This document shows, in pieces, positions 2,191-51,192 of a stretch of DNA of 64,000 bases. Origin of the DNA: Scenedesmus sp. PABB004 (lineage: Eukaryota); assembly GCA_014905635.1 (NCBI GenBank), contig JABVCE010000010.1, forward strand, positions 1-64,000. Reading direction: 5' to 3'. A program made the position numbers and the translations under genes. Each line of letters begins with the position of its first letter. Position 1 is the first letter of the stretch. The notes below the pieces were generated by a model, which saw nothing but the letters and a program-made list of their open reading frames with translations, was not told where the DNA came from and did not search any database.

Positions 2191-5100
2191 CTAGCCGTAG
2201 AGCCCGTGTCGCGCGAGGCCCTCCAGGACGCCCGCTGCCTCGGGCTTGTCTGTGAGCACGATGCGGCCGCGGTCGTTCTGCTCGTGGTACCACCGCACCA
2301 GCTCCTCCTGCGCGTTGCCTGCGCCGCACGCAGCAGCGGGGCAGCGGCGGTCGCGGCGCGGCGCGCGCGCTGCTGCTGGCGCGGCGTCTGTGCGCGGTGC
2401 GCCGCGTGTCACGCACCCACGATGATGGCGGGCATCTTGCCGTCGAGCATGAGGATGTCGTTGCACGAGTCGCCCGCCGTCGCGACGCGGCCCACGGGCA
2501 CGCCGTACAGCTGGCGCACCCACTCCAGCGCCTCCAGCTTGCCCGCGAGGCGGTGCACCACGTCCACGTAGCGCCAGTCGCCAGCGCCCGACGTTATGAT
2601 GCGCGCCTGCGCGGCGCGGCGCGGAGCGCGACGCGGGGGCGAGGGGGCGCGCAGCGCGGCGTCGGCCCGCGGCGTCGGCGGCGCGGCGGCGCTCGGCGTG
2701 CGCCGTCTGCCCCGCCCTCCCCAACAGGGGCGGGTTCAGTTCCGGACCTGGAGGTCGCGCTTGTCAATGCCCGCCTGCAGGCGGTCCATGAGGTCGTCCA
2801 GCACCGCGGTGTGCACCTGCAGCGCGACGCGGTGCGGGTGCTCCTGGCCCTTGTCCAGCCACTTGACGCGCTCCCCGGCGTCGCGGTTGAACGACTTGAG
2901 CATCTCGCCAGCAGCAGACAGCGCCTGCGCGGGCCGCACCGGGCCGCGCCGGCGCGTGGGTGGCGGCGGCGGCGGCCGCGCGCGCGCGCCCGCTGCGCCC
3001 CGCCGGCTGCGCGCGCACGCGCGTGCGTGCGCGCCTGCTGCAGGTCCCAGCCCTCGTCGAGGCGGCGCGACCAGTTGGTGTCCTCGATCCACTCCACCTC
3101 GGTGGGGTCCTGGAACGCGCGCATGCCGTCCGGCAGGTACCAGATCTGCGTGGCGGCGCCGGCGGTAGCGTGGGCAGGCGCGCGCGCAGGCCCCCGCGCG
3201 CGCGGCGCAGCAGCGGCGGCGAGGCGCGCCGCCCCCGGCGGCGCCGCGGGCGCGCCTTGGTGCCGACCGCGGTGATGAGCACGTCTGGCACCGCGAGCAT
3301 GGGCTTCTCCTTGAGCAGCCAGATGAGCTGGCCCTTGCTGCGGCCGGTGTTGTAGACGAGCACGCTGCGCGCGAGCGCGGCGCTGCTCTCCCAGTACTCC
3401 TGAAACTCCTTGGTGCGCGCGTCCATCCAGAACTGCGTGCCCTTGTCGCCGCTCTCGTTCACCATCGTGCCGTCGATGTCAGACACCTGCGCGCACGAGC
3501 GCGCACAGTCCACCATCGCGGCGGGGCCGCCGCCGGCGGCTGCGCGCGCTGCCGCAGCGCCGCGTCGCGGCGCGCACGCGTGTGGTGCGTGCGCTCGCGC
3601 ACCAGCATGATGGGCGGCGCGGTGACGGTGTTGAACTTTGTGACCGCGCCGTCCTGCAGCTTCCAGCCGCCCGGCCAGCGCAGCGTGTAGCAGGGCGAGG
3701 GCGAGGACTTGCCCGGCATGTCCACCTTGCACACGCCCTTGAGCTCGGCCGGGCTGCCCTCGGGCGCCAGCGGCGCAAACCAGCGCGCGGCCGCCGCCGC
3801 GGCGGCGCGCGCCGCGGCGTCCTCGCCGCTGGCGCTGCCGTTGCGCGTGCCGTTGCCGCCGCGCTGCTTGCTGCGCTTGCCGCCGCCGCCGCCGGGCGCG
3901 TCGTCGTCGCTGCCGTCGCCGCGCTGGGGCCCCTGCATGAAGAAGGTCAGGCTGTAGCGGTCGCGGTCGGCCGCGTCGACGCCCGGCGGCAGCGCGATGA
4001 TGGCCTGCTTCCACCGGCTGCCCTCGCCGCACGGCTCCGCGCGGCTGGGGCTGTCGTCCATTGCCAGCACCTGCCAGGCCGGGTCCACGGGCTGCCGCGC
4101 GGCGCGGCGCGGCGCGGCGCAGGCGGGCGGGCGGGCGGGCGGGCGGGCGTGGGCGGGTGTGGGCGGGCGCGCCGGCCGGCAGCGCTGGCGGCGGCTGCAC
4201 CGCCGGCGGCGGCGTCGCGCGCAGGCACGGCGCACGTGTCCGTCCTTGAGCATCTTGTAGGTCACGTTGCAGTGCCGCCAGCCGGTGGCGTAGAAGAGGT
4301 AGAACGCTGGCGGCACGCCCACGGCCACCTTGTTGACCGTGACCAGCTGCCCCGCCCGGTTGGCGATGTCGTGCCGCTCGTACGCGTCGCTCACCGCCAT
4401 GACCGGGTGCGGCGACGCGCCCGCGCCGCCGACCATGAAACGGAAGTGGTAGTCACCGGGCTGCGCGCGGCGGCCGCGGCGGCGGCGCGCACGCGCGCGA
4501 TGGCCCGCGCCGCCGCTGCTGCCGCGCACGCGCGGCGCCGAGCCGCTGGCCGCGCAGCGCGCGCGCGCCGCGCGCACCGGCAGGCTGAGCTCGGTGAACC
4601 AGGTGTGCGAGCCTTCCTTCTGCATCGGCGTCGCGACGCGCCAGTTGCTCCAGCTGCCGATCACGCTCACGGTCGTGCTCGGCGAGCGCACGGCCGCGGT
4701 GCCGGGCTTGAAGCTGAACTCGATGTGGCAGTTCTTCACGCACAGGCGCTTGTTGTTGATGTTGCCCTGCGCGCGCCCCGGCCGGCCCGCAGCGGCCCGA
4801 CGTCGGCGCCGCCGCCGCGCCGCGGCCGCTGCTGCTGCTGCTGCTGCTGCTGCTGCTGCTGCTGCTGCTGGCGCGGGCGCGGGCGCCGCGCCTCGGGGTC
4901 CATGACCAGCGGGTCGCCCGGCGCGGCCTTCCAGTCGCCGTCGACGTTGTACTTGTACTCGTGCTGCCCGACCTTCATCTTGTAGAGGGCGACCCAGTCG
5001 CCGGGGTACGAGCCGTTGGGCCCGCAGTGCCGCAGCCGCGTGTGCTTCTCGCGCCACTCACACCAGCTGCCTGCCGCGGCGCGGCGGCGCGGCGTGAGGC

Positions 5101-5583
5101 ACGGCGGTGGCGGCGTCCGCGCCTGCAGCAGCGGCAGCGGCAGCGGCGGCCGCAGCAGCGGCGGCGGGGTCTGCAGCAACCGCCCGCACCCGACAAGTAC
5201 ACGTCGGCGCCGCCGAGCTGGCCCGGCCAGCGAAACGGCACCCAGCATTCGTCCAGGTCGAGGCGGTCCGGCACCAGCAGCGGCGCGGGGGCGCCGGCGT
5301 CGCCCCAGTCGGGCGGCGACGGCGTCGGCGGGAAGCGCGTGCTGCTGCTGGTGCCAGCGGCGCTGCTCGCCGGCGGCGGCGGGCCCGGTGGCGCCGCGGC
5401 GCAGGCCACCGCCCGCCGCCAGCGCCTGGGCGGGGCGGGCCCGGCGGTCACGCCCGCCGCCGGGCGGGCTGTGCGGCCCGCCCGAGCGGGCAGCATCGGC
5501 GCGAGCAGCAGCGGCCCTGGAACAGCATGTGCCGGGAAAGGCCGCGCGGGCGTGCCCAGCGCGCGATCGCCGCGCAGCTGCAT
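2191..5583 (-). CDS. CBM48-CBM48-CBM25-like + sucrose-phosphatase-like HAD (subfamily IIB) protein, paralog 1; 10 exons
   Basis: Two AMPK-beta/CBM48-type units (VYLSGSWCEW...HEYKYNVDGDW; VSVIGSWSNW...GDYHFRFMVGG), then a FYLFYATGW...PGGWKL module. HAD motifs VSDIDGT, YNTGRS, AGKLEAL and GDSCND follow. Nine introns restore the frame, three with GC donors. Confidence 0.9.
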
Positions 5584-49768: not shown

Positions 49769-51192
49769 ATGGCGGCGGCCGCGCAGGGGGCCCCGTGCGC
49801 CCGCCAGACGTCCGGCCAGCCCGGCGGCGAGCCCGGAGGTGAGCCCGCCGGCGGCGAGCCCGCCGGCGGCGAGGCCGGCGGCCAAGCGGAGCAGCCGGCG
49901 GGCGAACACCAGCCCGCGCCTGCTCCAGACCGCCAAGCGGAGCAGCTGGCGGGCGAGCGCCAGCCTGCTCCGGCGCCAGGCGCACCGGGTGGCGGCGGTG
50001 CGCCGGACGGCGAAATCCTGTACTTCAACTGGGCGCAGCGCGGCGGCGCCGCGCGCGCGGCGATGGCCACGCTCGTCGCCGCGCTCGCGGACGACCCCAT
50101 CAATGCCTATTTCGTCAGCGCCGCGCGGCGCCGCCGCTTCGTCAAGGGCGAGGTGACCGCGGGCGGCCGCCCGCTCACGCTTGCGCGCCGCGCTGCCGCC
50201 GCCGCCGCTGACGCGGCCGCCCCCGCTGCCCACGCCGTCGCCGCCAGGTGAAGGGCTACCTCAAGGCGCTGCGGCGGGCGAGCCACTTCATGGCCACGCC
50301 CGACTGCGCCGCCGTCGCGCTGTGGCAGCTGCTGCCGGCCGAGACGCCGCGCAACGAGCTCTGGGCGGGCGCGGCGCGCATCCGCTTTGTGCCGCCGCGC
50401 CTCTGGCTGCAGCTGCTGAGCCTCGAGCTCCGCTACGAGGCCGCGCACGCCGCCCAGGCTGGGTGCGGGCCCTACTACTATCTCAGCTTCATCGCCACCG
50501 CGCACCACGCGCGCGGGCGCGGCCTCGGCAGCGCGCTGCTCTCCGCCGTCACGCGCCGCGCCGACGCCGAGGGCCGCGCCTGCCTGCTCGAGGCGACGAG
50601 CGAGCGCTCGCAGGCGCGACGGCGGGGCGGGGCGGGGCGCCGCGCGTTGAGGGGGGGGGGGGGGCACGCCGCCGCGCGCTGCCGCCGCTGCTCCCTCCCT
50701 CACGCCGCTGCTCCCTCCCCACGCCGCCGCGGTGTGTGACAGGCGCTGTACGCGCGGCACGGCTTTGTGACGTACGAGGCCTTCCGCGTCGCGCCCCGGG
50801 CGCCGCCCGTGTTTTTCATGCGCCGCGCGCCCGGCGCCAGCCCCGCGCCGAGCCCGGGCCCGGGCGCGAGCCCGCCCCCCGCCGCGGCGCAGCCCGCGGC
50901 GGGCGAGCCGGCCGCGGGCGGCGCGGTCGCGCTGAGCGCGGCGGCGCTGAGCCTCGTCGCGGCCCTATCGGGCAAGGAGGCCAAGGCCGGGGGCGGCGCG
51001 GGGCCGGGCAGCGAGTGCGGGTCCAGCGGGGGGTCGAGCCTCATCGGCGCGGCGGTGCTCATCGGCGACGGCGACGACGACGGCGAGTGCGCGGCACGGC
51101 ACCCCCGCGCGGCCGAGCCCGCGGCGGGCGGCAGCCAGCCCCAGCCGGCCAGCAGTCGCGGAGCGGCGGGAGGCCGCGACACGACCCTGTGA
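49769..51192 (+). CDS. GNAT acetyltransferase (puromycin N-acetyltransferase-like group); 3 exons
   Basis: LVAALADDPINAYF, YYYLSFIAT, ARGRGLGSALL, RRADAEGRACLLEATS and LYARHGF. Intron 2 is GC-AG. Confidence 0.85.

Follow-up and report, generated by a model that had tools for sequence, protein, structure and literature searches.

Introns that begin with GC in place of GT and end with AG (GC-AG introns) were analyzed in the first 64,000 nucleotides (nt) of contig JABVCE010000010.1 from Scenedesmus sp. PABB004, a stretch hereafter called the window. The window is nuclear DNA of a scenedesmacean green alga. The closest protein matches to its DHX16 gene are from Sphaeropleales green algae, and the deposited Scenedesmus sp. 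PABB004 proteins P0121 and P0391 are 100% identical to exons of the window. The G+C content, far above what is usual for eukaryotes, is 78% overall and ranges from 70.5 to 81.6% across 4-kb bins; the whole genome is listed in a 2025 comparative paper at 39.8 Mb and 78.5% G+C (PMC12571836). G or C occupies nearly every third codon position of the exons, and A and T are almost absent from one codon phase over long stretches, so that exons and reading frames were recognizable from composition alone. A six-frame listing of open reading frames was uninformative in the window, where nearly all six frames are open.

Intron junctions were placed by a scan in which all donor and acceptor positions within ±36 nt, with any dinucleotide, were scored against four to five homologous proteins. 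The other routes of validation were coordinate continuity in Pfam or PDB alignments and exact mapping of deposited proteins 99-100% identical to the window. In-frame GT-AG alternatives were sought within 30 nt of each GC intron. The validated set comprises 47 introns from this single 64-kb window, the deposited proteins being themselves predictions. Set aside were the introns at 13716-13793 and 42656-42833, the introns of genes with no usable homologues, and seven junctions of a second HAD-domain paralogue (7782-10452), at which homology scores were low and mixed. Of the validated introns, 34 are GT-AG and 13 are GC-AG (28%), and all 47 acceptors are AG. The 13 include five introns of DHX16, two of DHX33 and five of eight introns that had been named as examples in an initial annotation of the same DNA.

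Introns were also counted with gene models. A self-trained Viterbi model that gave GT and GC donors the same prior produced 22 genes with 108 introns (69 GT, 39 GC) and re-picked all eight named introns, a recovery that carries no independent weight. This model was rejected for overcalling GC donors, homologues contradicting its introns at 44374-44423, 42636-42834 and 40506-40791; the first of these is actually a GT-AG intron at 44255-44418, and at 41397-41509 the homologues place a GT donor 18 nt upstream of the call. A second model, retrained on the validated sites with donor priors favoring GT by 2.6 nats, found 44 of the 47 validated introns and predicted 107 in all (80 GT, 27 GC), with a score of 5076.0 when GC donors were allowed versus 4773.5 when they were forbidden. 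The initial annotation had estimated roughly 100 introns, about one in five with a GC donor. The first figure agrees with the 107 predicted introns; the GC share was 13/47 among validated and 27/107 among predicted introns, 19 of the latter 27 lying on the word AGGCGCG. GC-AG introns were above ~10% of all introns in both the validated and the predicted set. As read from the sequence, they are a genuine and rather striking class amounting to about 20-28% of the introns in the window; ~19 of ~100 is a fair estimate, and judging from the validated subset the true share may be somewhat higher.

GC-AG introns and the genes that carry them

The genes with more than one validated GC-AG intron include two that encode DHX-type proteins:

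39058..45098, minus strand: DHX16/Prp2 gene with 17 introns (11 GT-AG, 5 GC-AG, 1 ambiguous)
33552..36817, minus strand: DHX33-like gene with 8 introns (6 GT-AG, 2 GC-AG)

The validated GC-AG introns are as follows, the numbers being homology scores from the junction scan:

2925..3034, minus strand: cag|GCGCGC...GCAG, gene with CBM48 and sucrose-phosphatase-like (S6PP-like) HAD domains; GC-AG 696, no GT-AG solution
3146..3255, minus strand: aag|GCGCGC, same CBM48 and S6PP-like gene, splits AVGTK|IWY; 814 versus 646 for the best GT-AG
4767..4891, minus strand: gag|GCGCGG, within the CBM48 domain; 384 versus 314 for GT-AG, the highest-scoring placement that has an AG acceptor being GC-AG
13118..13195, plus strand: cag|GCGCGC, inositol polyphosphate kinase (IPK) gene, splits HQ|VGGH; used by the 100%-identical P0391
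17075..17198, plus strand: cag|GCGCGC, PTR2/NPF transporter gene; flanking exons abut at NRT1.1 residues 181|182 (5a2n_A)
30655..30735, minus strand: gag|GCGCGC, enoyl-CoA hydratase gene; Pfam ECH_1 positions 190 and 222 bridged exactly, no GT-AG alternative
34997..35124, minus strand: cag|GCGCGC with acceptor CAAG, DHX33; 1366 versus 1151 for GT-AG with five orthologues, used by P0121
36230..36317, minus strand: gag|GCGCGT, DHX33; 1302 versus 1127 for GT-AG, used by P0121
40170..40352, minus strand: DHX16, RALEQ|LYALG; 1166, no GT-AG solution
41127..41282, minus strand: DHX16, PSEMQ|AKIFE; 1206, no GT-AG solution
41655..41848, minus strand: DHX16, PGR|RYPVD; 1011, no GT-AG solution
42032..42204, minus strand: DHX16; 1229 versus 1139 for GT-AG
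42321..42444, minus strand: DHX16; 1034 versus 946 for GT-AG

The remaining candidates are probable, ambiguous or predicted:

29673..29836, minus strand: probable GC-AG intron aag|GCGCGC of 164 nt, Bld10/CEP135-like gene; removal keeps the frame, picked by both gene models
50614..50742, plus strand: probable GC-AG intron cag|GCGCGA, GNAT acetyltransferase gene; in-frame stop if retained
13716..13793 or 13720..13797, plus strand: ambiguous intron of the IPK gene, GC-AG at the former or GT-AG at the latter position (a 4-nt shift), of equal length
42656..42833, minus strand: ambiguous DHX16 intron cag|CGCGCG...CCAG, CG-AG as assembled, GC-AG if one G is missing
28132..28253, 26685..26795 and 26079..26175, minus strand: three predicted AG|GCGCG introns of the Bld10/CEP135-like gene, from the semi-supervised gene model only

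On the strand claimed, all eight introns named in the initial annotation have the donor AG|GCGCG and an AG acceptor, and removing each of them joins, in frame, stretches with 87-100% G or C at third codon positions. Their junctions were validated in five cases; 29673-29836 and 50614-50742 are probable on the basis of frame, stop codons and partial alignment, and 13716-13793 is ambiguous. The introns at 2925-3034 and 3146-3255 are both used by the 99%-identical deposited protein P0241. The former has no in-frame GT-AG alternative within 30 nt, and the latter contains no GT at all and ranked at the top of all donor and acceptor pairs. In the IPK gene, the intron at 13118-13195 likewise contains no GT and has no in-frame GT-AG alternative within 30 nt, and the exon downstream of it aligns to AtIPK2alpha (4frf_A) starting at residue 7. 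A PDB search with the short first IPK exon returned nothing usable, and a protein search for IPK homologues returned the genome's own fused model and no independent IPK orthologue. At 17075-17198 the sole in-frame GT-AG alternative cuts 22 nt off the upstream exon and 20 nt off the downstream exon.

The two possible positions of the second IPK intron (13716-13793 and 13720-13797) both fit the Pfam IPK spacing, and the resulting proteins differ at a single amino acid (E to R); the GT version is the one found in P0391. For the Bld10/CEP135-like gene, the sole in-frame GT-AG alternative to 29673-29836 within 30 nt (donor at -21) deletes residues that align to Chlamydomonas 5fcm_A. That alignment reaches exon residue 63 of 64, and the Bld10/CEP135 structures stop short of spanning the junction. 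Of the three further predicted introns of this gene, two have GT-AG alternatives: for 28132-28253 the alternative donors lie at +18 and +30 nt, and for 26079-26175 the alternative donor lies at +21 nt. The acetyltransferase intron at 50614-50742 has no in-frame GT-AG alternative within 30 nt, and its upstream exon aligns to the GNAT protein 2qec_A up to residue 121 of 122; a PDB search with the exon after 50742 gave no usable match.

In the enoyl-CoA hydratase gene, the ECH_1 alignment is bridged by a 28-amino-acid exon plus two split codons, which checks the GC intron at 30655-30735 and the GT intron at 30474-30567 jointly. The scan of DHX33 against its orthologues gave five GT-AG and two GC-AG introns, and P0121 maps exactly onto these seven plus another GT intron; the two GC introns claimed for this gene are thereby confirmed at 36230-36317 and 34997-35124. 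The acceptor CAAG of the latter departs from the usual CAG. Altogether, the deposited proteins that are 99-100% identical to the window use five of the validated GC introns.

Five or six GC introns had been claimed for DHX16, of which five were validated. At each of these junctions the top-scoring solutions were equivalent shifts among which GC-AG is the sole one with an AG acceptor, and GT-AG solutions scored 88-90 lower or were absent. The same scan gave GT-AG at 11 other DHX16 junctions, five of them in the N-terminal part. The sixth GC intron (42656-42833), which had been proposed on the assumption of a missing G, is ambiguous: CG-AG reaches a homology score of 949, the best GC-AG, with a two-amino-acid insertion, 901, and the best GT-AG 866. 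This intron contains 19 G in a row, and if a single G were missing at the exon boundary, the donor would be a normal AG|GCGCG. The DHX16 exon at 40760-40771 (minus strand) carries a 1-nt frameshift inside helicase motif VI, one extra base being needed relative to homologues; the gene is essential, and the shift most probably reflects an indel in the assembly.

Several other features of the window were observed. The gene with CBM48 (AMPK-type carbohydrate-binding) domains and an S6PP-like HAD domain at 2191-5496 forms a tandem paralogous pair on the minus strand with the gene at 7782-10452, which has the same domains. The introns at 4767-4891, 4092-4235 and 50614-50742 contain simple repeats, namely an extended (CAG)n tract, a (GGGC)n repeat and 14 consecutive G. 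A large gene for a LysM/leucine-rich-repeat protein occupies 56000-61300 (plus strand), a region of lower G+C content (70.5% in one 4-kb bin); a GC call, itself doubtful, was made for just one of its eight predicted introns. Deposited models merge adjacent genes: P0391 (1066 amino acids) combines a DUF676, an IPK and a DUF1499 gene (11105-15714, plus strand), and P0241 (710 amino acids) joins the S6PP-like gene with the next gene (625-4436, minus strand). The 108 nt at 15510-15617 (plus strand) are coding in P0391; a GT-AG intron is indicated there by the Pfam DUF1499 alignment, which resumes at position 92 after ending at 90. An Rfam scan of the 64-kb window found no family and no small nuclear RNA (snRNA).

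Donor context in the two intron classes

The validated GC donors read AG|GCGCG in 13 of 13 cases, as the initial annotation had claimed. The word AGGCGCG occurs at 0.07% of window positions, yet it falls exactly at all 13 GC junctions, which were placed without assuming it. AG at -2/-1 (exon-side AG) is present in 13/13 GC donors versus 10/34 GT donors (Fisher p=8e-6), and GCG at +3 to +5 in 13/13 versus 19/34 (p=0.004). GTGCG was thus found in 19 of the 34 validated GT donors, in line with the statement that GT donors are mostly of this form. At +4, these 34 donors have 21 C, 7 A, 4 G and 2 T. When the context AG|G_GCG is considered among the validated donors of both classes, position +2 is C in 13 and T in 4.

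The usual consensus of GC donors is AG|GCAAGT, with AA at +3/+4. In the window +3/+4 is GC instead of AA; the absence of the canonical match at these positions had been claimed and was borne out, +4 being C in all 13 validated GC donors and A in none. The weak +2 position of the GC donors is compensated elsewhere in the donor, by exon-side AG and by G at +5 (each 13/13), with no compensation at +4. On average, GC donors matched the canonical CAG|GTAAGT at 4.69 positions and GT donors at 5.12.

Exon-side AG and A at +4 avoid each other among GT donors. In the 80 predicted GT donors, exon-side AG was found in 1 of 21 with +4 A versus 21 of 59 without (p=0.009); the corresponding figures for validated GT donors were 0/7 and 10/27 (p=0.08). 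Since the position weight matrix treats positions independently, this trade-off was not built in by the model. Apart from the donor, no difference was found between the GT and GC classes in length (medians 121.5 and 124 nt) or G+C content (86% and 87%). Most introns of both classes close with CAG, and the next base is usually G, as tabulated over the last 10-15 nt ahead of the acceptor.

Origin of the abundant GC donors

The GC-AG introns are probably ordinary U2-type spliceosomal introns that have become common through extreme G+C pressure, no altered snRNA being required. The canonical 5' end of U1 is ACUUACCUG and the canonical U6 box is ACAGAGA. Genome-wide pressure toward G or C would turn the T at +2 into C where the rest of the 5' splice site carries recognition. 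C at +2 would be tolerated solely in the context AG|G_GCG, in which A at -2 and G at -1, +1 and +5 could still pair with U1, and donors lacking exon-side AG would retain GT, often together with an A at +4 that is complementary to U1. That +4 A and exon-side AG avoid each other is consistent with this proposal, being what additive pairing to the canonical U1 5' end predicts. Given the exon-side compensation, the similar match of both classes to CAG|GTAAGT and the trade-off, the variant snRNA suggested in the initial annotation is not needed to account for the GC donors.

Several points weigh against this reading. We infer the removal of the GC introns in vivo solely from protein homology and deposited protein models. 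Position +4 is C in 13/13 GC versus 21/34 GT donors (p=0.009), a preference that is unpredicted by canonical U1 pairing, and the invariant +4 C leaves some room for a lineage-specific preference. C is not dominant at +2 in the context AGG_GCG when the model-predicted set is considered (19 C versus 16 T). The base-level accuracy of the assembly is imperfect, with at least one 1-nt frameshift (in DHX16), two of the GC cases of the initial annotation are ambiguous (13716-13793 and 42656-42833), and 60 of the 107 predicted introns lie outside the validated set.

The +4 preference is the observation from which the foremost alternative draws, namely that the 5' splice-site code of the lineage has shifted to AG|GYGCG, with a degenerate +2 and a preferred C at +4, and that the 5' end of U1, the U6 ACAGAGA box or U1C/LUC7-type proteins have co-evolved such that GC donors are fully fit. 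This explanation is unlikely, although the +4 C of all GC donors and of 21/34 GT donors, with GTGCG as the modal GT donor (19/34), is what it expects, and of the 44 times that AGGCGCG occurs on the sense strand inside predicted genes, 19 are donors. For a comparable consensus, GTGCGTG in Ostreococcus lucimarinus, a change in snRNA has also been raised as a possibility that merits exploration (Irimia and Roy 2008, PMC2483917). The exon-side compensation and the trade-off fit canonical U1, however, and donors of the GTGAG type with weak exon ends are still in use, +4 A being present in 7 of the 34 validated GT donors. The wider version of this explanation, in which AG|GYGCG is read with co-evolved U1/U6 or U1C/LUC7 by this alga and conceivably by GC-rich green algae in general, is marginally more doubtful still.

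It is very improbable that the GC donors are artefacts, either of an assembly that shows C for a genomic T at +2 or of wrong GC models where nearby GT donors are used. Errors of both kinds do occur: the equal-prior ab initio model overcalled GC (39 of 108 introns) and was wrong at the three introns given above, the intron at 13716-13793 has an equal-length GT-AG alternative, and motif VI of DHX16 contains a 1-nt assembly frameshift. At 13 junctions, however, GT-AG was excluded by homology or coordinate continuity, and five of these are without any in-frame GT-AG within 30 nt. Direct observation revealed one assembly error, a 1-nt indel rather than a T-to-C substitution, and 13 errors all at +2, each beside AG and before GCG, are not credible.

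Excision of the GC-start introns by the U12-type minor spliceosome or by a non-spliceosomal route has next to no likelihood: beyond the non-GT start nothing speaks for it, all 13 begin with GCGCG rather than a U12-type donor of the form (A/G)TATCCTT, all end in AG and mostly with the CAG|G acceptor of the GT introns, and a survey of 263 species reports no minor-spliceosome snRNAs or minor introns in Chlorophyta (PMC11347168).

The GC-AG introns would offer a clean natural experiment on which parts of the 5' splice site are dispensable, C at +2 being present only with AG at the exon end and GCG at +3 to +5. Close relatives of much lower G+C content exist, Tetradesmus being listed at about 57% (PMC12571836), so that orthologous introns can be compared for the direction of change. 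For annotation, gene finders that admit only GT-AG introns or penalize GC donors would get about every fourth or fifth intron of this genome wrong. Fused genes and one retained intron are already present among the deposited proteins that match the window.

GC-AG introns in other genomes

A literature search returned no paper on the splice sites of strain PABB004 or of Sphaeropleales, subscription journals being mostly outside its coverage. In a survey of 121 plant genomes, GC-AG introns are reported at ~1.2% (PMC6310983). The introns of the window resemble GC-AG introns of plants and animals in their probable U2 type, in their AG acceptor and in a stronger consensus elsewhere in the donor, here the exon-side AG of 13/13. 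They differ in being roughly 20 times commoner and in that the compensation lies only on the exon side and at +5.

The green alga Ostreococcus lucimarinus is comparable in another respect: except on chromosome 2, its 5' splice sites are reported to follow the consensus GTGCGTG (Irimia and Roy 2008, PMC2483917). Both algae have an atypical donor core of the GTGCG type, and in both the question of an snRNA change has been raised. Ostreococcus lucimarinus differs in that it is intron-poor with very strict splice signals, and the available part of that report makes no mention of an abundance of GC donors.

High frequencies of GC-AG introns are known from algae of other lineages. In the haptophyte Emiliania huxleyi, GC-AG introns account for 56% of 241 curated junctions, were confirmed with RNA and are ascribed to high G+C content (Feldmesser et al. 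2014, PMC4028052). As with the window, the DNA is that of a GC-rich alga, GC-AG introns form a major class and the AG acceptor is kept. In contrast, GC donors are the majority in the haptophyte, whereas in the green alga they make up about 20-28% as read from sequence alone. For the pelagophytes Aureococcus anophagefferens and Pelagomonas calceolata, ~14-17% of predicted introns are reported as GC-AG and attributed to high G+C content, with 0.32% in the low-GC relative (bioRxiv 10.1101/2024.10.30.620910). The pelagophytes differ from the alga studied here in that they are stramenopiles with few introns per gene, their figures coming from predicted models. With the window, the link between extreme G+C content and abundant GC-AG introns, drawn for haptophytes and pelagophytes, would reach a chlorophycean green alga as well. 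Abundant GC-AG introns are a habit already described in other GC-rich algae, to which the window adds another case.

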